Below the pieces are notes generated by a model. That model did no database searches, was not told where the DNA came from, and saw only the letters and a program-made list of their open reading frames with translations. A stretch of DNA of 54,833 nucleotides from NCBI GenBank assembly GCA_016939375.1, contig JAFGHF010000012.1:1-54833 (forward strand). Direction: 5' to 3'. This document shows positions 1,604 to 15,285 of this stretch, in pieces. The translations under genes were made by a program, and so were the position numbers. How positions within the stretch are numbered: position 1 is the first letter of the stretch; each line of letters begins with the position of its first letter. The DNA is from Candidatus Omnitrophota bacterium. GTDB taxonomy: Bacteria; Omnitrophota; Gorgyraeia; JAFGHF01.

Positions 1604-3202
1604 TTACTCCTCAAATTGATCGAGTATCCTATCCATTGCCTCCTCTTTTAACTCAAAATCTTCATACCCCCAAGGATCTCCCATGTTTAATGCCAATCCA
1701 GGCATGTCTTCTCTAACCATGCGAGGGGTGATAAAGATAACTACCTCTCTGTCAGTTACCTCATCGTCTTTTTTACGAAATAGGTTTCCTAATAAAGGGA
1801 TATCTCCCACCCAAGGTACCTTTCTCATGCTTTTTGTACCTTCGCTGCTGATCAATCCACCGACTATAACAGTCTCTCCATCGCGTACTCTGACTATAGA
1901 CTGCGTACTTTTCACTTCGGCGTCCGCTCCTACAGTGGGAAATAGAGGGCTGAGAAACGCTCTGCTTACTTTGGGATTGATCAGCATAGTGATCTCTTCG
2001 GTCCTAGGATTTATCTGTGGGGTCACCTGCAGAAAAACACCCACACCTTCGCTTACCAGAGAAACATCAGAGGCACGTTCAGCCTCTGTGGTGCGGTTTC
2101 CGTCAGCATCGACTTCCACTCTCACGCCCAAGACCTCGTCACTGACAATCTTTATTTCTGCTGTCTCATTGTTTAACGCCAGCACTTTAGGTTGGGCCAA
2201 GATCTTTGTATCGGTATCTTGTTTAAGCATCGCCAAGATGCCTCCTAGGTTTGCTGCTGAAATATAACCTAAGGAGACAGTCACAGGGACACCATCATAA
2301 CCGACTTTACCTACTCTTTCTAATGAAGGATGTTCATTCGGTTTTGTGAAAGGATAAGTGCTGCTACGTACCGAACCCCAGGCTTCAGCTAAATCCCCCT
2401 CCGCAGCAGTTCCCCATTCTATCCCTAATTTATCAATAGTATTGGTGGTAGTTTCTATTATTTCCACTTCTATCATCACCTGAGGAAGCTTGACATCCAG
2501 CTCCTTTATCGCTTTCTCGATCTGAGCAAATTGCGAAGGTACATCAGAAACGATCAAGCTATTGGTGCGTGCGTCCTCGATTACCGCCCCGATGAGTTTG
2601 CCTTGCCCATCTTTGGAAAGCAAGCCTGTGATGATGTCTTTGATGCCGGAAGTAGTCTTATCGGACTTCTGGCTAGAGGAAAGTTCATATCCTTTCACCC
2701 GGGCATACTGCAAAGGATATATCTTGGTAATAGTCTCTATCTCTGGCCGGTCCAAGACTTTTACTATGAATATGTTTCCTTTTTGTTCATAAGTGAGGTT
2801 ATTTGCCCTCATCAGAGTATCCAACGCGTCTTTCACAGGGACTCTATCCAAATAAAGGGTAACTTGCTGCCCCCTGACCCTTGGCCCCTGAGAAACAAAA
2901 TTCAAACCAGCCTGTTGGGAAAATATTTTTAATACATCTTCTAGGGCAGCGTTCTGAAAGTCCATTGAAATAACCGTATCGCTACTCTGTATAAAATCAG
3001 CGCCAGTTGAACTTGTGGCTGTAGCCGCAACTGCCGTCGTGGCTGAAGTCGCAGTCGGATATTCACCAGCCAATAACTCAGAATTCGGATTATTTTCGGA
3101 TTGAGCGAGACTTAAGCTAAAAGACAGGCCAAATAACATAAAAAACATTGCTAAGGGAATAAACAAAATATACTTCTTTATTCCTGCTAAAGATAACTTC
3201 AT
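1604..3202 (-). CDS. pilQ: Secretin (PilQ/GspD family)
   Basis: Signal peptide, STN/N0 domain (ISMDFQNAALEDVL), N3 (DARTNSLIV), PQVMIEVEI, QPKVLALNNETAEI, VRDGETVIVGGL, KVPWVGDIPLLGNLF, EVVIFITP. Confidence 0.93.
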   Translation of the reverse strand: MKLSLAGIKKYILFIPLAMFFMLFGLSFSLSLAQSENNPNSELLAGEYPTATSATTAVAATATSSTGADFIQSSDTVISMDFQNAALEDVLKIFSQQAGLNFVSQGPRVRGQQVTLYLDRVPVKDALDTLMRANNLTYEQKGNIFIVKVLDRPEIETITKIYPLQYARVKGYELSSSQKSDKTTSGIKDIITGLLSKDGQGKLIGAVIEDARTNSLIVSDVPSQFAQIEKAIKELDVKLPQVMIEVEIIETTTNTIDKLGIEWGTAAEGDLAEAWGSVRSSTYPFTKPNEHPSLERVGKVGYDGVPVTVSLGYISAANLGGILAMLKQDTDTKILAQPKVLALNNETAEIKIVSDEVLGVRVEVDADGNRTTEAERASDVSLVSEGVGVFLQVTPQINPRTEEITMLINPKVSRAFLSPLFPTVGADAEVKSTQSIVRVRDGETVIVGGLISSEGTKSMRKVPWVGDIPLLGNLFRKKDDEVTDREVVIFITPRMVREDMPGLALNMGDPWGYEDFELKEEAMDRILDQFEE

Positions 3203-3228
3203 GACCCCCTCCTTGTCATCTGATTAAG

Positions 3229-3654
3229 CTATTCTATCGTTTCAGGCCTTAAAATATACTGATTATCCTGGTATAACAAATATACACCCTCTTTACGAAC
3301 ATCCAAAACCTGAGCACCTTCGATAACATCGCCCTTGCGCACTACTTTATTATTTATTATAGCCTGAGGGGACTTTGAGCCCCAAACCATCCCTTGAATA
3401 TGCAAGTGAGTCAAAGGAACTTTGATTTTAGGAAAATCATCTTTTGTTTCTTGCGTCGGTCTGATAATCATTTCATCCGGACTCATAAACGGATCGCGTA
3501 GACTTATAGCTGTATATTCCACTCTTGGCCAAGAAGGCTCTTTAGAGTCTTTCTTTTCATCCTGCGCAAAAGCAAAATGGGAAACAACCCCGATCGGCAA
3601 AAGGGCTAAGAAAACCAAATATGGAATGAGATTTCTTTCAATTTTTTTTATCAT
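3229..3654 (-). CDS. PilP/GspC-HR-like exported assembly protein
   Basis: N-terminal hydrophobic segment, RDPF motif, LHIQGMVWG..AIINNKVVRKGDVI; located between pilO and the secretin. Confidence 0.75.
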   Translation of the reverse strand: MIKKIERNLIPYLVFLALLPIGVVSHFAFAQDEKKDSKEPSWPRVEYTAISLRDPFMSPDEMIIRPTQETKDDFPKIKVPLTHLHIQGMVWGSKSPQAIINNKVVRKGDVIEGAQVLDVRKEGVYLLYQDNQYILRPETIE

Positions 3655-4169
3655 TCTTCAAATAAATAAAGCCCGTTTAACGTCAAATTCACTTGAAGCA
3701 TACCCACGCCTGCACCTTCAATATCATCTAGCTTCCCCAGCCTCACCGACTGCACCCGGATCAGTTCTTTATTGCTTTCCAATAGACTGATAAATTTACC
3801 TACCTGATGATATCCGCATCTGAGAGGAATCTCTAGGGGGATGTAGGCAAATCCTTCCTTATGGCTCAGGGGACGCGGGCTGAAAGTTTCGATCGCTATA
3901 CCGCATTCTTTGGCTAATGGAGTAATCATATCCAGCAAGGGAGTAATTTCTGTCGATGGAAAAGACCTGCTTCTAAATGTTTTCATCTTTCTATCTAATA
4001 TGCTGATATCTATCAGAAGTTCTCCCTTTTTCTTCTCTTTCTCTATTTCTTCCTTTACCGAGGCTATCTTTGTCTGATTATACTTCAATACCAGGTTATA
4101 TCCGATGAAACACACAAGCAAAAAGACTAGAATGAATATTGCCTTATTCTGATATTTGGTAAAATCCAT
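3651..4169 (-). CDS. pilO: Type 4a pilus biogenesis protein PilO
   Basis: N-terminal TM, coiled coil, PSTEITPLL, CGYHQVGKFISLLE ferredoxin-like periplasmic domain. Confidence 0.85.
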   Translation of the reverse strand: MDFTKYQNKAIFILVFLLVCFIGYNLVLKYNQTKIASVKEEIEKEKKKGELLIDISILDRKMKTFRSRSFPSTEITPLLDMITPLAKECGIAIETFSPRPLSHKEGFAYIPLEIPLRCGYHQVGKFISLLESNKELIRVQSVRLGKLDDIEGAGVGMLQVNLTLNGLYLFEE

Positions 4170-4193
4170 TTTTACTCCTAATTAAGCTGTTTT

Positions 4194-5747
4194 CTATTCA
4201 CGTACACAGTTGACGGTAAATGTCTTTGCGGGTGCCCCTTTTACCTCAATAGCATCCATCCCGCCTAATTTTATTTCAGTGAAACCTTTTGAGAAAACCT
4301 CGTTTTGTTTAAGATTTGCCATCAAAGTAGTGATAACGCTTATCTGTTGCACGGAGTCTTCATGGTAGACAACACCCCTTATCACTAAAGATGGGTTTTC
4401 CAGCAATCTATCTGATATTTCGAGGCTGGTCAACCAGACTCCCGGAGGCAACACTCTGGGTATCTCATTAAATTTTTCTGTCCAAAAGATCCTTTTGTCA
4501 ATGACCTGACTTAGTCTCTGTACTTTTTTGTTCAATTTAATCTTTTCGGTCTCGATATCTTCATAGGGAAGCGAATCTATATCCCCTTTTAAACTTACTT
4601 TTGGCCTGGTAGCGATTGCTTCATCCAGCTTTTTCTTTTCCTTGAGGATGTTATTATACATAAATAGATGCAGGCCCACAAGACAAGCAATAGACGCCAA
4701 TATGGCTTTCGTGATAACACGCTGCAATTCCGGGGTAAGCTTGATCGCTTCACCAGGCTTGGCAGCTGCTGCTGTCGCCTTTGGTTTGACTTCTCGCACT
4801 TTACAAAGATTTACCGAAGGGATGATATTAGTGAGGTCTCTTAATCCCAGGCCGATGGCTACGCTAGTACTGACAGGAGGCATGACCTTTTTCACTTTTA
4901 TAGCTTTTTTCAAGTCGACCTTGTTTACAGGCACTTTTAATTCTTCCATCAAAGTCTTGTCCCAATCCTTAAGGTCGACAGCACCGCAAAGTAATATCTT
5001 GTTGATCGTCTCCGCGGGAAAAAGTTTTTCATAATAGTCCAAAGACATGCGAATCTCATTAAGCAGACTTTCAAAGACAATATCCTCTTCCCAAGGCAAA
5101 GAGACATCACGTGTAAGATAACAGATCTTATCTTTTACAATGTTTATATCCGCCATCCCATAGTCTATGTCGACAATAGCTGCTGATTTATTTTTGTCCA
5201 ATTGATGGGCCAGCGAAAAAAGCCTCAGCAAACTAAAAGGCGCCGGCTCCATCGCGGAGATCTGCAGGCCTGCCTGTTCTAATAAAGACATATACCACTG
5301 TGCAGTCTCGGTCTTCACGGCCACAAAGGTAACATCCATTTTATTGGCTTTGCTCCTGGGCATCACTACATGGTAATCCCACATCAGCTCTTCGATCTTG
5401 AAAGGGATGTATTTTTTAGCCTCGAATTTTATTGCCGTCTCACATTCGTGTTTGGATATCTTGGGGATCTGGAAATACCTAATCAATACATCCTTCCCGG
5501 ACAAAGCAAGGACTACCTTCTTAGCAGAAATATTGTTCTCCCGCACAGACCTTTTGATCGCCTGTACTATTGCCGCGGCCTGTTCCTTGGTGGTTTCAGA
5601 TCTTTGTTGGGATTGCAAAGGAGCTTGGATTTCGGTCTTGCCGAACTTGACTAAACGTAGGCCGGAGAATGCCCCTTTTAGCTGGGCTATATAGACATCT
5701 CTAGTGCCTACATAAATACCTGTGGATGTTTGTAGGTTAAAATTCAT
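4194..5747 (-). CDS. pilM: PilM-PilN fusion protein
   Basis: Actin-like PilM part (GIYVG, FEAKKYIPF, VDIDY, ILLCG, VAIGLGLR), then VNL motif, a TM segment, coiled coil and PilN-like WTEKFNEIPRVLPPGVWLTSL. Confidence 0.85.
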   Translation of the reverse strand: MNFNLQTSTGIYVGTRDVYIAQLKGAFSGLRLVKFGKTEIQAPLQSQQRSETTKEQAAAIVQAIKRSVRENNISAKKVVLALSGKDVLIRYFQIPKISKHECETAIKFEAKKYIPFKIEELMWDYHVVMPRSKANKMDVTFVAVKTETAQWYMSLLEQAGLQISAMEPAPFSLLRLFSLAHQLDKNKSAAIVDIDYGMADINIVKDKICYLTRDVSLPWEEDIVFESLLNEIRMSLDYYEKLFPAETINKILLCGAVDLKDWDKTLMEELKVPVNKVDLKKAIKVKKVMPPVSTSVAIGLGLRDLTNIIPSVNLCKVREVKPKATAAAAKPGEAIKLTPELQRVITKAILASIACLVGLHLFMYNNILKEKKKLDEAIATRPKVSLKGDIDSLPYEDIETEKIKLNKKVQRLSQVIDKRIFWTEKFNEIPRVLPPGVWLTSLEISDRLLENPSLVIRGVVYHEDSVQQISVITTLMANLKQNEVFSKGFTEIKLGGMDAIEVKGAPAKTFTVNCVRE

Positions 5748-5974
5748 GGCTTCTTTTTAGAGCCTTTTGCCTTTCGCGTCTCTTTTTTCTCTGGTTCTGT
5801 TCTAGCTTCTCTTATTTGGGAACGCAACCACGCGTCGATAGCCCGCTTATCAAACCTCCAGACATGTCCGACTTTTATCCCAGAAATCTTTTTTGCATGC
5901 AACCAGTTGTAAATAGTCTGCTTCTGGAGTTTTAGATAAGCAGCTAACTCATCTACATCCATAAGCCTGCTCAT
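5744..5974 (-). CDS. Excisionase-like HTH_17 (MerR-type) DNA-binding protein
   Basis: LMDVDELAAYLKLQKQTIYNW...GIKVGHVWRF...IDAWL with a basic tail; ATGA overlap with pilM. Confidence 0.92.
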   Translation of the reverse strand: MSRLMDVDELAAYLKLQKQTIYNWLHAKKISGIKVGHVWRFDKRAIDAWLRSQIREARTEPEKKETRKAKGSKKKP

Positions 5975-10251: not shown

Positions 10252-10452
10252 TTACTTTCTTAATTCTATCGAATAGTCTTCCTCCTGCTGGTCCAATATA
10301 ACATGCCCCTCTCTGGCCAGCCAGCCTAAGCTCATTAAAATGGTGTCGCGGGATTTATCTAAACTAGAAACTATTGTTGAGAGCCTGCTTGCGCCGTGCT
10401 CATCAAGAAAATGCCAAATCTCTCCAGCAACTATTCCCAATTCCGTTATCAA
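10252..10452 (-). CDS. Winged helix-turn-helix protein (DUF2582 family)
   Basis: LGIVAGEIWHFL ... LGWLAREG signature. Confidence 0.85.
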   Translation of the reverse strand: MITELGIVAGEIWHFLDEHGASRLSTIVSSLDKSRDTILMSLGWLAREGHVILDQQEEDYSIELRK

Positions 10453-10703
10453 TGTCCACCTCCTTCTCTATCATTATAACTCCCACATCTGGGGCAGACA
10501 GAAAGTTTTTTGTGCTTGCTGTCCACGTAGATATAGGTACATATTGAACACTGCCAAATAGATTCCAAGTCCATCTTGCGCTGCCGAGGGACTTCGATCT
10601 TCGAAAATAAAAACCAAAGGCCAAAAAAACCAAAGATAGTTAATAAAAGATATAGAAATACCGCTATTTCAAACTCGAGCTTTATCATTTTAAGACCACT
10701 CAA
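10449..10703 (-). CDS. Single-TM protein with C-terminal Cys4 zinc finger
   Basis: TM IAVFLYLLLTIFGFFGLWFLF, then CSIC...CPRC. 4-nt overlaps with both neighbours; alternative ATG at 10688. Confidence 0.8.
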   Translation of the reverse strand: MSGLKMIKLEFEIAVFLYLLLTIFGFFGLWFLFSKIEVPRQRKMDLESIWQCSICTYIYVDSKHKKLSVCPRCGSYNDREGGGH

Positions 10704-11368
10704 CCCTCGCCTAATTCGATGGAAAGAGGCGTTGAGCTGGCAAAATCAAGCCTCATCTTGACTCTCTGCCATTGCCCCTGATTATCGGGTACAGGCGCAA
10801 AACGCCATCTTCTCAGATAACGGGCTAGGGCCGTGTCTATTTCCGGATCGCCGCTAGCCTGTAGATTAACAACTTCCTCAACCAATCCATCTGCTGAAAC
10901 AAATATATTAAAGACTACCGCACCAACTTTTAGCGCCTGCTGGCCCCATTCTGGATAAGCTCTGAAATCGGGCTGAAAGATTATTTCTCGTGTCGATGAA
11001 ACCATTTTCTTAGCTAAAAAACTCTGCGCAAATTCTTTCTGCTGTTTATCGACATCGACTATGAATCTGTCGGGGGCGAATGTCTCTTTTTCAGCAGCCA
11101 AAGAATCTAAAGGCATATCTAAAAAACCATCTACCCTAGCAGCCTTTGCCTCAAACGGAAGCTCCAAGAAGGCCTTTCTCTGCGGCCCCGTCTGTTCCTT
11201 GGTTACCGAACCATGTAAAATCGAACCCAAAAATATAACCGCGGTATGTTGATTCAAAGCAAACCTGTTAGGCAAAAAGACCACGGACACTAAGCAGATC
11301 AAGAGCACGTGGCATAAAAAAGAAAACAAAAACGCTACTCTAAACTCTTTGCTGATCATCACTATCAT
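10700..11368 (-). CDS. TonB-like energy transducer
   Basis: TM with SFLCH (S..H motif). C-terminal YPEW...VFNIFVSADGLV...SGDPEIDTALARYLRRWRFAP TonB_C domain. Confidence 0.85.
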   Translation of the reverse strand: MIVMISKEFRVAFLFSFLCHVLLICLVSVVFLPNRFALNQHTAVIFLGSILHGSVTKEQTGPQRKAFLELPFEAKAARVDGFLDMPLDSLAAEKETFAPDRFIVDVDKQQKEFAQSFLAKKMVSSTREIIFQPDFRAYPEWGQQALKVGAVVFNIFVSADGLVEEVVNLQASGDPEIDTALARYLRRWRFAPVPDNQGQWQRVKMRLDFASSTPLSIELGEG

Positions 11369-11379
11369 AAGCCTTATGT

Positions 11380-11781
11380 CTATTCCATGGACTGGTTAGT
11401 GGCGATATTGATCTGGGTTAAGCCTACATCTCTGCAAAGATCCCAAATCTGCACTACCTTACCTAAAGAGGAACTGCGATCGGCCTTGATCAAAAGAGGA
11501 CGGTCTTCTTTTGAGAACCCTTGTAAATACTCTCTCAACTGATTCAAGGTAACTGGCTTATCATTTAAATAGATCAGATCTTCAGCGCTGACAGCAATGA
11601 TCAGATTTTTTTCCTGAATCACCTCGCTAGTCACCGCTTTAGGCAGATTTATTTTGATCCCCGGTTGAAAGATATAGCTTGAGGTAAGCATAAAAAATAT
11701 CAAGAGCAGAAATACTACGTCGATCAGCGGCGCTATGTCTAAATGCCCACTTTCAAATTCCAAATGTTTTTTGAATCTCAT
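11380..11781 (-). CDS. exbD: Biopolymer transporter ExbD/TolR
   Basis: DIAPLIDVVFLLLIFFM, INLPKA, LIKADR. Confidence 0.95.
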   Translation of the reverse strand: MRFKKHLEFESGHLDIAPLIDVVFLLLIFFMLTSSYIFQPGIKINLPKAVTSEVIQEKNLIIAVSAEDLIYLNDKPVTLNQLREYLQGFSKEDRPLLIKADRSSSLGKVVQIWDLCRDVGLTQINIATNQSME

Positions 11782-11801
11782 CTTTTTCTCACCTCATTTG
11801 C

Positions 11802-11834
11802 AGCTGAGAGCTGAGAGCTGACAGCTGAAAGCTC
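11802..11834. repeat. 7-bp tandem repeat (AGCTGAN x ~4.7)
   Basis: agctgag agctgag agctgac agctgaa agctc between exbB and exbD. Confidence 0.9.
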
Positions 11835-11836
11835 AA

Positions 11837-12463
11837 TTAATATTCATCTGACCGACGCGATAGAATATTGACCAATTCCGTAGCCGACCTATCCATATCC
11901 AGAATAAAGTTCTTTACCCTGCTAACCAAATAGTTATAAGCCACAAACGTAGGTATAGCCACCACTAATCCGGCAACGGTAGTAATCAAAGCTTCCCAGA
12001 TACCTCCGGCTAGATCCCCAGGGCTTACCGGATTTAAAGTAGTCGCTTTCTGCTGGATGACTTGAAAGGCCCTGACCATACCCGTAACCGTGCCCAAAAG
12101 GCCTAAAAGCGGAGAAATATGAGCAATGGTCGCCAATGTCCCTAGATTCTTTTCCAAAGACGGAACTTCGTATATCCCGGCATCTTCTATAGCCTCTTTG
12201 ATTTCTCCTCTAGAACGGTCGTGTTTCAAGATTCCGGCTTTTATAATTCGGGCTATGGGACTAGGGGTCTTTTCGCATAAGTCGATCGCCTCCATGATCC
12301 GGTTGCGCCTCAATATATTCCCGATAGTCTCCATGAACTTATTGATGTCTATCCTTATACGATATAGATGAAACAGCCTTTCGATCACTACCGCCATTGC
12401 TACTATTGAGCAAAGTATGATCAAATACATCAAAGGCCCGCCTTTTTGGATAATATCCCACAT
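11837..12463 (-). CDS. exbB: MotA/TolQ/ExbB proton channel protein
   Basis: GGPLM, IER, SPLLGLLGTVTGM, LAGGIWEALITTVAGL. RBS GGAGG before the ATG at 12463. Confidence 0.95.
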   Translation of the reverse strand: MWDIIQKGGPLMYLIILCSIVAMAVVIERLFHLYRIRIDINKFMETIGNILRRNRIMEAIDLCEKTPSPIARIIKAGILKHDRSRGEIKEAIEDAGIYEVPSLEKNLGTLATIAHISPLLGLLGTVTGMVRAFQVIQQKATTLNPVSPGDLAGGIWEALITTVAGLVVAIPTFVAYNYLVSRVKNFILDMDRSATELVNILSRRSDEY

Positions 12464-12537
12464 CTTACCCTCCTTCAAAAGTAAAACATCAAGATAATCT
12501 ACGTTAATAAATGGCTAATAAACGCAAATTTCCCTTA

Positions 12538-12855
12538 TCAATAATAAAATATGATTACGAGTAGCGCAATAGTGATAATAACCGCGATGATGTAAAAATC
12601 CCAAAAATAGAAAAAGTCTCTGATCCTCTCGCCCCTGGTGTATGAAATGGGGCGCGCCGCCTCTTTGTCTAAGCTAGAGACTCTAGGCAACCCTCGGGCC
12701 TTGATTTCATCGATCTGGTCTTTTTTAAACCGTAAAATAGTCCCCCCTAAACGGTATGCGGGCAATTCTCCTCTTTCCACTAAAACCTTGATCTCGTGCT
12801 CCGGTATACCTAAGTATTGAGAGACTTCCCTTGTGTTAAGCAACTTCTCTGACAT
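12538..12855 (-). CDS. HTH_17 DNA-binding protein with C-terminal membrane anchor
   Basis: LLNTREVSQYLG...GELPAYRLGGTILRF HTH_17; C-terminal hydrophobic FYIIAVIITIALLVIIFYY. The ORF can be extended to TTG at 12882. Confidence 0.88.
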   Translation of the reverse strand: MSEKLLNTREVSQYLGIPEHEIKVLVERGELPAYRLGGTILRFKKDQIDEIKARGLPRVSSLDKEAARPISYTRGERIRDFFYFWDFYIIAVIITIALLVIIFYY

Positions 12856-12956
12856 TTTTGCTTTTTCTTTTTTTAAAGTCAATTCTAGCTTCTCTTGAAG
12901 ACAGTATTCTTGCCTTAAGAGCTTTGACTTTGGACTATTATTCAGTTAACCAGCTG

Positions 12957-13526
12957 TTATTTTATTCTTTCGCTGGCGATCCAAGAATCTACCTTAGTTC
13001 TGTCAAATCTCCAGCTGTTTCCCTCTTTTTGAGCCGGGATCCTTCCAGCCTTGGCCCAGTCTACCACAGAGTTAGCGTCCACTTCCAAGTACTTAGCCAG
13101 CTCCTCGACGTTCATCAGCATCTCGTTTACAGTAGAGCTGCTGATCTTTTTGGCCTGCTCGCTCATGTCACACTTACCTTGCAGTACCGCTCCCCCTGTA
13201 ACATCCAGCTTAGGAGTCTTGATATCCCCTTGAAGATAAGCAGTACGGGTAAGGCTTAAGCTACTGGAAGCGTTCACGTTGCCGTAGACTTTTCCCGATA
13301 TCACGATATCCTCGCCGTTTATATTCGCGTGGACCTGGGCATTTTCACCTACAGTCAGATTCCCCTTGGTATCTAGACTGCCCTCAAATCTACCGTTTAT
13401 ACGTAAGTTGACTGGGTCGCGAAAAGTCATGCTACCCTGCATACTGGCATCGACATCGAGGATTTTTTCTTTCACCGGCCGAACTTCCACCTCTTCTTTC
13501 TCCTTCTTCTTGTTTCTGAAAGCCAT
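12957..13526 (-). CDS. Bactofilin (polymer-forming cytoskeletal) domain fused to HTH_17
   Basis: Beta-helix repeats LRINGRFEGSL...LTVGENAQVHANING..IVISGKVYGNV...LQGDI..PKLDV..GAVLQG, then LMNVEELAKYLE...GRIPA...WRF...VDSWI. RBS AGGAGG. Confidence 0.92.
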   Translation of the reverse strand: MAFRNKKKEKEEVEVRPVKEKILDVDASMQGSMTFRDPVNLRINGRFEGSLDTKGNLTVGENAQVHANINGEDIVISGKVYGNVNASSSLSLTRTAYLQGDIKTPKLDVTGGAVLQGKCDMSEQAKKISSSTVNEMLMNVEELAKYLEVDANSVVDWAKAGRIPAQKEGNSWRFDRTKVDSWIASERIK

Positions 13527-13545
13527 GCTTTCACCTCCTTATGTT

Positions 13546-13600
13546 TCGTCGTTCGTAGTTCGTCGCTCGTGGATCGTAAGCGAACCACGAATCACGAGTT
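13546..13600. repeat. 7-bp TCGTNNN tandem array followed by inverted copies (hairpin)
   Basis: tcgtcgt tcgtagt tcgtcgc tcgtgga tcgtaag cgaacca cgaatca cgagtt; TCGTGGATCG and CGAACCACGA pair with one mismatch. Confidence 0.85.
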
Positions 13601-14271
13601 TACACTTCTTTCCAACTGGCGCCTTCTACGCCCTCTATGCGCATTGCCCCATCTATTATTTGATCGCTTTGCTGAGGACTGACAAGCTTCAGCTCAAATT
13701 CGACTATCATGTTGTGGCTCTGCGGTTTCTTCTTTATCTCTAAGTCCTTGATCTCGCAGTTATGCTCGGCTAATACCCTGCGCACTTCCTTCAGCTGCTC
13801 GGCATGCCCTTTGGTCTCCAGAGAAAGCACTCGATATTGATCCTTGCGCACTATTGACTTCTCTACTTTAGTCAAAACAAGTAGAACGACAAGCATCAAA
13901 GCTGCTGCTATATATGCGCCGCTGGTGAATCCACTGCCGATAGCCAGACCTATACCGGTGACCGCCCAAAGACTGGCAGCAGTAGTCAAGCCGCGTACCG
14001 AAGCCCTGAAGCGCATGATAGTCCCCGCTCCCAAAAATCCTATGCCGGTCATTACCCCTGCGGCCAAGCGTGTAGGGTCTATATTGCAATCGGCACCGTA
14101 AGCGGTAAGCATATATATCGAAGTAAGCATAAGCAGCGTTGAACCCAGACAGACTAACATATGCGTACGTAGGCCCGCAACCCGGCCATGCAATTCTCTC
14201 TCAAAGCCAATTAAGCCGCCGATTATAAAAGATAGGGTCAAGCGAACAATGAGGTCTGTGACAGTAAACAT
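13600..14271 (-). CDS. MgtC/SapB family membrane protein with ACT-like C-terminal domain
   Basis: IGFERE, AGLRTH, DPTRLAAGVMTGIGFLGAG, GLTTAASLW. Confidence 0.95.
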   Translation of the reverse strand: MFTVTDLIVRLTLSFIIGGLIGFERELHGRVAGLRTHMLVCLGSTLLMLTSIYMLTAYGADCNIDPTRLAAGVMTGIGFLGAGTIMRFRASVRGLTTAASLWAVTGIGLAIGSGFTSGAYIAAALMLVVLLVLTKVEKSIVRKDQYRVLSLETKGHAEQLKEVRRVLAEHNCEIKDLEIKKKPQSHNMIVEFELKLVSPQQSDQIIDGAMRIEGVEGASWKEV

Positions 14272-14283
14272 ATTACCTCCCGA

Positions 14284-15285
14284 TTAAATCTTGAGATTTG
14301 GATTGACTTCCAGATCTAGCCTGGAACGCTTTCCTCTTTTGTAAAGCTGGTAAGCTAATCCAGCAACCATCGCCGCGTTATCCTGGCAAAGCGCAAATTC
14401 AGGAACATGGACATTTATCCCCAATGGCTTTAACTCTTTTTCTAATCGCTCTCTTAACCTGCCGTTTGCCACCACTCCCCCACCGATCACTACATCCTGC
14501 ACATTTTTAAAAAGGCACGCTTTAAGCGTTTTTTTCACCAGGACATCCACTACCGCTTCCTGAAAACCCGCCGCTATATTTCGTCGTTCGTGATTCGTGA
14601 CTCGTGATTCGTGGTCTTTTACATAATACAATACAGCGGTCTTTAACCCGCTAAAACTGAAATCCAGGCTATCTTCCCCCAAATACGAACGGGGAAATCT
14701 AATCTTATCGGCATCCCCTTTTTTAGCTGTTTTTTCTATGATCGGGCCTCCGGGATAACCCAGATCCAATATCTTGGCTACTTTATCAAAGGCCTCTCCG
14801 GCTGCATCGTCGAGCGTACTTCCCAGCTTCCGCCATTTTAAGAAACTCTGCACATAAAAAAGGCTGGTGTGCCCTCCGGAGACGATCAAGGCCACAAAAG
14901 GAAACTTATTCTTGCGCTGGTTCATCATGCCTGCGTACACATGAGCCTGCAAATGATTTATTCCCAAAAGCGGTACGCCCAAAGCCAAACTCAAAACTTT
15001 ACCTAGCGTCAGCCCGATTAAAAGCGCTCCCACCAAACCAGGGCCGTATACCGCAGCTATCAGGTCGACATCATCCAAGTCGATCCCGGCTTCTTTTTCG
15101 GCCTGCTCCAGGACATAATCGATCAGTTCTACATGGTAACGTGTCGCTATCTCTGGAACAACGCCTCCATACTTCTTATGTAAATGCAAGCTGGAAGCGA
15201 CTACATTAGAAAGTATTTTCTTGCCGTTTTCTACCAAAGAAATGGCTGTCTCATCACAAGAAGTCTCAATGCCAAGTACCAACAT
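14284..15285 (-). CDS. tsaD: tRNA threonylcarbamoyladenosine transferase TsaD
   Basis: LGIETSCDET, GGVVPE, GPGL, NHLQAH, SGGH, DDAAGEAFDK, FSFSGLKTA, DNAAM. Confidence 0.97.
   Translation of the reverse strand: MLVLGIETSCDETAISLVENGKKILSNVVASSLHLHKKYGGVVPEIATRYHVELIDYVLEQAEKEAGIDLDDVDLIAAVYGPGLVGALLIGLTLGKVLSLALGVPLLGINHLQAHVYAGMMNQRKNKFPFVALIVSGGHTSLFYVQSFLKWRKLGSTLDDAAGEAFDKVAKILDLGYPGGPIIEKTAKKGDADKIRFPRSYLGEDSLDFSFSGLKTAVLYYVKDHESRVTNHERRNIAAGFQEAVVDVLVKKTLKACLFKNVQDVVIGGGVVANGRLRERLEKELKPLGINVHVPEFALCQDNAAMVAGLAYQLYKRGKRSRLDLEVNPNLKI
14581..14615. repeat. 7-bp TCGTNNN tandem repeat inside tsaD
   Basis: tcgtcgt tcgtgat tcgtgac tcgtgat tcgtggt, encoding DHESRVTNHERR. Confidence 0.88.

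Follow-up and report, generated by a model that had tools for sequence, protein, structure and literature searches.

What does a domain of DNA-binding type do at the end of a cytoskeletal protein? Bactofilins act as scaffolds whose clients are recruited through disordered tails or through the core, and the gene that raises the question, here called bacHTH, encodes a bactofilin that ends in a folded winged helix-turn-helix (wHTH) domain. It lies on contig JAFGHF010000012.1 of a Candidatus Omnitrophota bacterium (GenBank assembly GCA_016939375.1), whose positions 1 to 54,833 were analyzed (hereafter the window). A preliminary description, made from the nucleotide sequence, had proposed that a complete bactofilin beta-helix is fused to an excisionase-type helix-turn-helix (HTH) and that polymerisation would display an array of DNA-binding heads, giving a filament that binds DNA directly. 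We find that bacHTH is a bactofilin of the Omnitrophota with a conserved two-domain architecture, a fixed gene neighbourhood, a fold shared with solved relatives and a head of atypical charge, and that it has a constant downstream partner, missed by that description, which encodes a tail-anchored membrane protein with a related domain. As a whole the earlier interpretation is partly supported: the fusion is real, and its heads are about as likely to bind protein, perhaps this partner, as DNA.

The bacHTH gene (12957..13526, minus strand) is an uninterrupted open reading frame (ORF) of 189 amino acids plus stop, as supported by its translation, by both Pfam domains and by orthologs. The strings MAFRNKKKEKEE, LMNVEELAKYL, WRF and VDSWI quoted in the preliminary description are all found in the translation, and the fused protein that it postulated was borne out by a profile scan in which both domains proved to be full length. 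The bactofilin domain, at residues 22-119 (13170..13463, minus strand), matches PF04519 over profile positions 2-97 of 98 with 86.9 bits (cut-off 27.9, E 1.2e-24). It is followed by a flexible linker of variable sequence at residues 120-136 (13119..13169, minus strand), 11-24 amino acids long among 98 orthologs, and by the C-terminal wHTH domain of the HTH_17/excisionase type at residues 137-186 (12969..13118, minus strand), which matches PF12728 (HTH_17) over profile positions 1-50 of 51 with 49.4 bits (cut-off 27, E 5.3e-13) and also exceeds the cut-off of NCBIfam TIGR01764 'excise' (40.5 vs. 28.8).

A strong Shine-Dalgarno sequence read from the DNA, AGGAGGTG (13532..13539, minus strand), stands 5 nucleotides upstream of the ATG and supports a start at MAFRNKKK, and hence the reality of the N-terminal tail; motifs of the GGAGG type occur at the equivalent place in the close relatives L001-L007. 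The tail itself (13503..13526, minus strand) had been noted earlier for its charge, and what was overlooked is that it resembles the membrane-targeting sequence of bactofilins, for which a global consensus of MFSKKKK has been given (PMC12448750). A loose hydrophobic-plus-basic pattern is present in 76 of the 98 orthologs, with phenylalanine at position 2 or 3 in 46, and about 22 have short basic tails with no hydrophobic residue.

A structural model built with AlphaFold2 (AF2) on the 98 orthologs had a mean predicted local distance difference test score (pLDDT) of 79.9 and a predicted template modelling score (pTM) of 0.54, the latter fitting two domains on a flexible tether. The beta-helix is confident over residues 22-116 (pLDDT 82-97 across residues 21-120), and residues 1-19 and 125-135 are disordered (pLDDT <50), which takes in the tail and most of the linker. 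By sequence the bactofilin domain matches BacA of Caulobacter crescentus (2n3d, E 1.3e-11) and TtBac of Thermus thermophilus (6ria, E 8e-9), and by Foldseek it matches 6ria, 6rib and 2n3d with TMt 0.74-0.80 and probability 1.00, at E-values of only 1.9e-3 to 5e-2. Residue L115 aligns with BacA F130 and TtBac F105, and this position is hydrophobic in all 98 orthologs (L 51, F 32, I 8, M 5, V 2). Arginine at either of the two phenylalanines stops polymerisation (PMC12448750; bioRxiv 10.1101/617639), and family membership together with the conserved interface residue suggests that bacHTH polymerises too. Filaments of the Thermus bactofilin lack polarity, their subunits meeting at N-N and C-C interfaces and repeating every 5.7-6 nm (bioRxiv 10.1101/617639); because of these C-C interfaces and this repeat, the heads of a bacHTH polymer would be expected to leave it as two-fold pairs about every 6 nm. 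The display of heads foreseen in the preliminary description thus gains from the hydrophobic residue at position 115 and the disordered linker; it is the words 'DNA-binding' that the acidic head, described below, does not bear out.

The fusion is not unique to the source assembly, and its orthologs extend across the phylum. Both Pfam domains are present in each of the best 120 of 2244 bacHTH homologs, which puts the fusion far beyond chance, and where the sources name these proteins they call them 'polymer-forming cytoskeletal protein [Omnitrophota]' or 'excisionase family DNA binding protein'. Of the 301 Omnitrophota genomes sampled, 295 had a match of some kind: 267 contain a full-length ortholog (best E <=1.5e-25), 28 only a weak match (1.3e-10 to 3.4e-4; classes counted from the table of matches), and six none. 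The source genome (1.74 Mb, 93% complete) has bacHTH as its sole bactofilin match. In the ESM Atlas, four clusters (197, 85, 400 and 61 members) combine bactofilin and HTH_17, most commonly from Omnitrophota, and 21 representatives matched bacHTH at E <=1e-30 among 1.84 billion (50% identity). More distant fusions of the two domains, P0161 (a cluster of 12), P0145 and P0141, share 32-37% identity with bacHTH, and a search of the 301 Omnitrophota genomes at E <=1e-30 did not recover P0161; judged from these sequences, the architecture may reach beyond the sampled phylum. Some of the distant fusions have N-termini that look like membrane-targeting sequences (MKFFPQKKR, MFKRKPK), and one further match, P0170 (231 amino acids), carries three tandem HTH_17 domains. 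P0172 and P0176, fusions with extra N-terminal parts, were left uncounted, since each forms a cluster of one, on a contig of about 1 kb, and may be a fragment or chimera.

Gene order is equally stable. In 80 related loci bacHTH belongs to a fixed co-directional cluster, gatC-gatA-gatB-ctp-(polysaccharide deacetylase)-tsaD-mgtC-bacHTH, with tsaD found in 76, mgtC in 73, ctp in 67 and gatB in 65 loci, numbers limited by the extent of each locus. By their titles, 60 of these loci, taken from species genomes, are Omnitrophota or Omnitrophica, 19 are 'uncultured Planctomycetia/Planctomycetales' and one is 'Margulisiibacteriota'; since all 80 loci have the same gene order, the odd labels probably reflect coarse binning.

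Immediately downstream of bacHTH in 78 of the 80 loci, the other two ending at a contig edge, is the partner gene. In the window it occupies 12538..12855 (minus strand) and encodes 105 amino acids from the ATG at 12855, the ORF list starting it at a TTG at 12882. The protein is composed of an HTH_17 domain (residues 5-53), a linker of 16-53 amino acids that is often basic, a near-invariant DFFYFNDFY motif and a C-terminal transmembrane helix; the aromatic juxtamembrane motif, DFFYF(N/W)DFY in its general form, and the helix span 12541..12618 (minus strand). In 63 aligned rows D80, D86, F87 and Y88 are invariant and F81, Y83 and F84 at least 90% conserved, and the C-terminal 18-20 amino acids are hydrophobic in the partner orthologs. 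Partner ORFs were mis-parsed in 6 of the 78 loci (L017, L021, L028, L045, L049 and L054), the alignment was made without L012, L018, L020, L033, L042, L057, L058, L062, L070 and L076, where the start was uncertain or the ORF incomplete, and for L002 an internal ATG was taken as the start. Comparison of the bacHTH head with the partner HTH by hhalign gave 27% identity and a probability of 97.6, that is, ordinary homology, with no sign of a recent duplication linking the two.

Of 121 Omnitrophota genomes, 114 have a single full-length copy of the partner. Among the 121, both genes occur in 107, the partner without bacHTH in seven, neither gene in seven, and bacHTH without the partner in none; the genomes include relatives and so are not independent samples. 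Five near-complete genomes (97-100%) gave only a weak match to bacHTH and have no bactofilin at all, and all five retain the partner. Four loci of bactofilin-less genomes were read: in three of them the usual gene order runs from tsaD or mgtC straight to the partner, with bacHTH cleanly absent, and the fourth (G018) showed just a weak partner match. With at least five near-complete genomes lacking any bactofilin, bacHTH is not essential to the phylum.

The head has the topology of a small winged helix, with helices at residues 140-147 and 151-160, strands at 166-168 and 171-175 that form a beta-hairpin wing, and a last helix at 176-188 in the AF2 model; these elements were reproduced in a domain-only model. 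Its best fold neighbour is BldC (6ama), with a root-mean-square deviation of 1.5-1.9 Å over 49-51 residues and 31% identity, and BldC is also its best solved relative by sequence (E 0.16 with the single sequence, 0.024 with the profile). The next neighbours are RacA bound to DNA (5i44), terminase wHTH domains, RdfS, Pukovnik Xis, NmlR, gpNu1 and pSK1 Par (8csh); the GIsul2 excisionase and CbpM in complex with the J domain of CbpA (3ucs) are also among the neighbours. For the head every Foldseek E-value exceeds 1e-3, which is normal for a domain of 50 residues. The head falls below the cut-off of the BldC subfamily (NF033787 HTH_BldC, 21.4 bits vs. 77), and NCBIfam matches to MamR (E 0.004) and RacR (E 0.033) were ignored as being far under their cut-offs. 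DUF4004 (PF13171), the family of BacR, is absent from the Pfam matches of both head and partner even at E up to 10.

In its charge the head departs from its relatives. Over the 98 orthologs the mean net charge is -1.37 (range -5 to +1), compared with +6 for the aligned segment of BldC by our own tally; among the other HTH_17 matches in the same genome the partner has 0, and the remaining eight, one of them a partial match of 23 amino acids, have +4 to +7. The DNA contacts of BldC are reported as T27, T29, K33, W31, K26, R30, H46, R47 and R48 (PMC5859096), and residues of BldC were mapped onto the 98 orthologs through the sequence alignment of head and BldC. Three equivalents are retained: position 153 (T27) is serine in 69 orthologs, position 157 (W31) is tryptophan in all 98, and position 173 (R48) is lysine or arginine in 94. 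The others examined are replaced: position 156, corresponding to the base-reading R30, is aspartate or glutamate in 87 and basic in none, position 172 (R47) is tryptophan in all, position 148 (R22) is glutamate in all, position 155 (T29) is leucine, valine, methionine or phenylalanine in 85, and position 152 (K26) is variable, with no basic residue among those listed. The head thus falls short of the basic DNA-contact residues and the electropositive face expected of an HTH_17/excisionase domain, and the 'DNA-binding heads' of the preliminary description do not hold as written, the head being net acidic and the equivalents of R30, R22 and R47 replaced.

The pattern is that of a bipolar rather than a degenerate domain, because two opposite features are both conserved. 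One is an acidic face formed by E148, D/E150, D/E156, D/E175 and D180, of which E148 and D/E150 (each in 98 of 98 orthologs) and D/E156 (in 87) lie on the helix that usually faces DNA. The other is a basic wing with lysine or arginine at positions 162 (98 of 98), 167 (94), 173 (94) and 176 (96), and also at 178. Such a head would lend itself to head-to-wing contacts of the sort made by BldC; there F21, V23 and W31 belong to the head-to-tail interface, and their equivalents here, L147, V149 and W157, are conserved. Taken by itself, with its electrostatics and replaced arginines, the fused head seems ill suited to binding DNA, whereas the family prior points the other way.

We tentatively favour a model in which bacHTH polymerises on the membrane and its paired wHTH heads mainly dock the tail-anchored partner, giving a two-protein scaffold. 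The N-terminal MAFRNKKK, from its likeness to the published targeting sequence, would lay bacHTH on the cytoplasmic membrane; the beta-helices would associate end to end, N-to-N and C-to-C, in a polymer without polarity; and the heads would project from it on their flexible linkers, with the pairing and spacing taken from the Thermus bactofilin. They would then serve mainly as docking modules for the wHTH of the partner, head to head or head to wing, so that bacHTH and partner together would make a membrane scaffold; DNA, if engaged at all, would be bound by a composite array of both proteins. Docking of this kind has precedents. The HTH of RodZ is required for MreB binding (PMC3599482). In Firmicutes the gene for the HTH protein BacR lies upstream of bactofilin genes; BacR binds BacE and BacF and is held at the membrane, with weaker DNA binding in their presence (PMC13649987). 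The membrane-targeting sequence of BacA can be replaced by a membrane-bound client (PMC12448750), and one fold neighbour of the head, CbpM, is seen in complex with the J domain of CbpA. Several observations weigh against the docking model. The nearest folds of the head are the DNA complexes of BldC and RacA, and nearly all characterised HTH_17, excisionase and MerR-like wHTH domains are DNA binders. S153, W157 and the basic wing have been retained. Of the 121 genomes, seven lack bacHTH but keep the partner, which therefore has a role of its own. Finally, the co-occurrence counts overstate the coupling of the two, as the genes are adjacent and a single deletion or assembly gap removes both.

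Some of these observations recommend the original proposal, in which the polymer with its array of heads would bind DNA directly. Being membrane-bound as well, such a polymer would tether or organise the nucleoid at the membrane, in the manner of RacA or pSK1 Par but with a bactofilin as its self-associating part. The head belongs to HTH_17 and TIGR01764, its fold neighbours include BldC and RacA with bound DNA, three excisionases (RdfS, Xis and GIsul2), gpNu1 and the centromere complex of pSK1 Par, and S153, W157 and the basic wing residues are conserved. Domains of this class typically have to oligomerise before they bind DNA (BldC head-to-tail, RdfS filaments), so that a polymer could give avidity in cis, with two-fold head pairs offered at the C-C interface, and bactofilins already serve chromosome organisation through PadC. 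Set against this are a head charge that is never above +1 in 98 orthologs, the exchange of the BldC arginines for acidic residues or tryptophan, the lack of any conserved repeat or operator in the intergenic DNA flanking bacHTH in close relatives (L001-L007), and the near-complete genomes of the phylum that do without a bactofilin. Weighing the family prior against the residues of the head, we regard direct binding of DNA as possible but somewhat less likely than docking. A more elaborate form of the proposal, in which the bacHTH polymer and the partner would constitute a dedicated membrane-to-nucleoid tether with a cooperative grip on DNA, used in chromosome organisation or segregation and perhaps to mark the division site, seems unlikely. 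An improbable alternative is a switch like that of BacR, the head being a transcription-factor module whose access to DNA is set by polymerisation and membrane sequestration, for example in autoregulation of the operon or in response to envelope stress. The behaviour of Bacillus BacR cited above is in its favour, and the Omnitrophota fusion would be a Rosetta-stone version of the BacR-bactofilin pairing; by the same argument the fusion lends support to the recently reported interaction of BacR with bactofilins. Release of a covalently fused head would nevertheless need proteolysis, DUF4004 was not matched, the upstream regions are unconserved among L001-L007, and the acidic charge counts against DNA binding here too. 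Least probable of all, we consider, is an intramolecular gate, in which the acidic face of the head would bind the basic tail or cap the C-terminal end of the beta-helix and so control membrane binding or polymerisation. The basic MAFRNKKK and the invariant acidic face would fit such a gate, as would the coupling of membrane binding to polymerisation in BacA (PMC12448750); in the AF2 model, however, the head is undocked from the beta-helix (pTM 0.54), with linker and tail disordered, and about 22 of 98 orthologs have short tails outside the hydrophobic-plus-basic pattern.

The tether proposal has a context in the phylum, for FtsZ was found in none of the Omnitrophota genomes searched. The tubulin/FtsZ domain PF00091 is missing from all 121, of which 117 are of high quality, while 13 of 14 reference genomes used as a control were positive; FtsZ_C and TIGR00065 were also negative in the source genome, which does have MreB and two ParB genes. 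The absence of PF00091 conflicts with one paper, according to which Ca. Omnitrophota have highly conserved dcw genes (PMC12283558), and an earlier report gives FtsZ in only one of three 'Omnitrophica' (PMC5147048).

A comparison with known systems shows which parts of the arrangement are familiar. The canonical bactofilins BacA and TtBac have in common with bacHTH the full PF04519 beta-helix, a hydrophobic residue at the interface position and apparently an N-terminal hydrophobic-plus-basic peptide, but where they have the usual disordered C-terminal tail bacHTH has a folded winged helix of 50 amino acids, and it is a single-copy gene in a housekeeping cluster. In Myxococcus xanthus, as the preliminary description correctly stated, BacNOP position ParAB indirectly through PadC; there too a C-terminal extension is the client hub, an adaptor gene lies directly downstream and there is a link to DNA organisation. 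That link, however, runs through a separate ParB-like protein, whereas bacHTH has a DNA-binding-type domain built in and is followed by a tail-anchored HTH_17 protein, the two ParB matches of its genome lying elsewhere. BacR (YhbD, DUF4004) with BacE and BacF in B. subtilis is a further case of an HTH protein that is genetically linked to bactofilins and binds them in a membrane-associated complex, but these are separate polypeptides, BacR is of another family, and it can move from the membrane to the nucleoid as a fused head cannot.

Among DNA-binding proteins, BldC, RdfS and Xis are monomeric wHTH domains that act as arrays, as the bacHTH heads would; BldC, the best fold match, differs in that its base- and wing-contact arginines are replaced in the head, whose net charge is negative and whose NF033787 score is under the cut-off. 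RacA of B. subtilis and pSK1 Par join a MerR-like wHTH to a self-associating region and anchor or segregate DNA; in both the self-associating part is a coiled coil and not a bactofilin, and RacA is anchored through DivIVA. The partner has the build of RodZ, with a cytoplasmic HTH at the N-terminus, then a linker and one transmembrane helix, and its gene lies beside a cytoskeletal one; the HTH of RodZ binds MreB and not DNA. The HTH of the partner is of the HTH_17 type, though, with no RodZ-type HTH family seen among its Pfam matches, and the protein ends with the transmembrane helix and so is without a periplasmic domain.

Beyond bacHTH and its partner the window continues (10252-12478, minus strand) with genes for ExbB, ExbD, a TonB_C protein, an 84-amino-acid zinc-ribbon membrane protein and a DUF2582 winged-helix protein; homologs of the ExbB-ExbD-TonB group occur only in the seven closest of the 80 related loci. 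On the other side, between mgtC and bacHTH (13540-13600), about three TCGTGnT heptads are followed by five ACGAnnn heptads in an imperfect palindrome that could form a hairpin. It was rejected as an operator because its folding z-score is -1.83, 11 of 200 shuffles fold as well and it is unconserved in L001-L007. Promoter-like and terminator-like signals in 11700-14400 were about as frequent as chance predicts (five vs. 3.7 expected and two vs. 2.1, respectively). Elsewhere in the window, a 76-amino-acid stand-alone HTH_17 gene with a net charge of +4 (5744-5974, minus strand) overlaps by 4 nucleotides the start of a 517-amino-acid ORF, which is followed by three co-directional ORFs of 172, 141 and 532 amino acids (together 1604-5747, minus strand); in L006 a homolog of the small gene (85% identity) is found 5.4 kb downstream of bacHTH.

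Two other HTH_17 fusions were seen in the source genome. A 511-amino-acid frame carries HTH_17 (net charge +7; C9:7792-7914, plus strand) at the N-terminus of a protein that by eye resembles glutamine synthetase, which recalls the MerR-type regulators TnrA and GlnR, since these bind glutamine synthetase (PMC5859096). A 325-amino-acid frame has HTH_17 (C32:8307-8447, plus strand), a hydrophobic segment and then a region resembling, again by eye, a polysaccharide-export protein, and is thus a further fusion of HTH_17 to a non-regulator protein.

Both domains of bacHTH are textbook families, and public annotation already calls the protein a bactofilin. No published account of a fusion of bactofilin to HTH_17 or excisionase was found in full-text literature searches judged by titles and abstracts, where the only listed paper to combine bactofilin with Omnitrophota or with the names of the second domain is a general review that mentions bactofilin once, and the terms 'additional domain' and 'DNA-binding' do not occur in the searched text of a study of 14,337 bactofilin homologs (PMC12448750). 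The links between bactofilins and DNA known so far are indirect (PadC) or regulatory (BacR), whereas here a folded domain of DNA-binding type lies inside the polymer subunit itself. The arrangement is constant throughout most of this uncultured phylum, whose cells are very small, and it comes with a second, membrane-anchored protein that carries a related domain. Binding of the partner by the heads would make this a new mode of bactofilin anchoring and a clear case of a wHTH domain turned protein adaptor. If they bind DNA, bacHTH would be a one-protein tether from membrane to nucleoid, and should the tether reading prove true, it would be the first cytoskeletal filament to carry its own DNA-binding domain.

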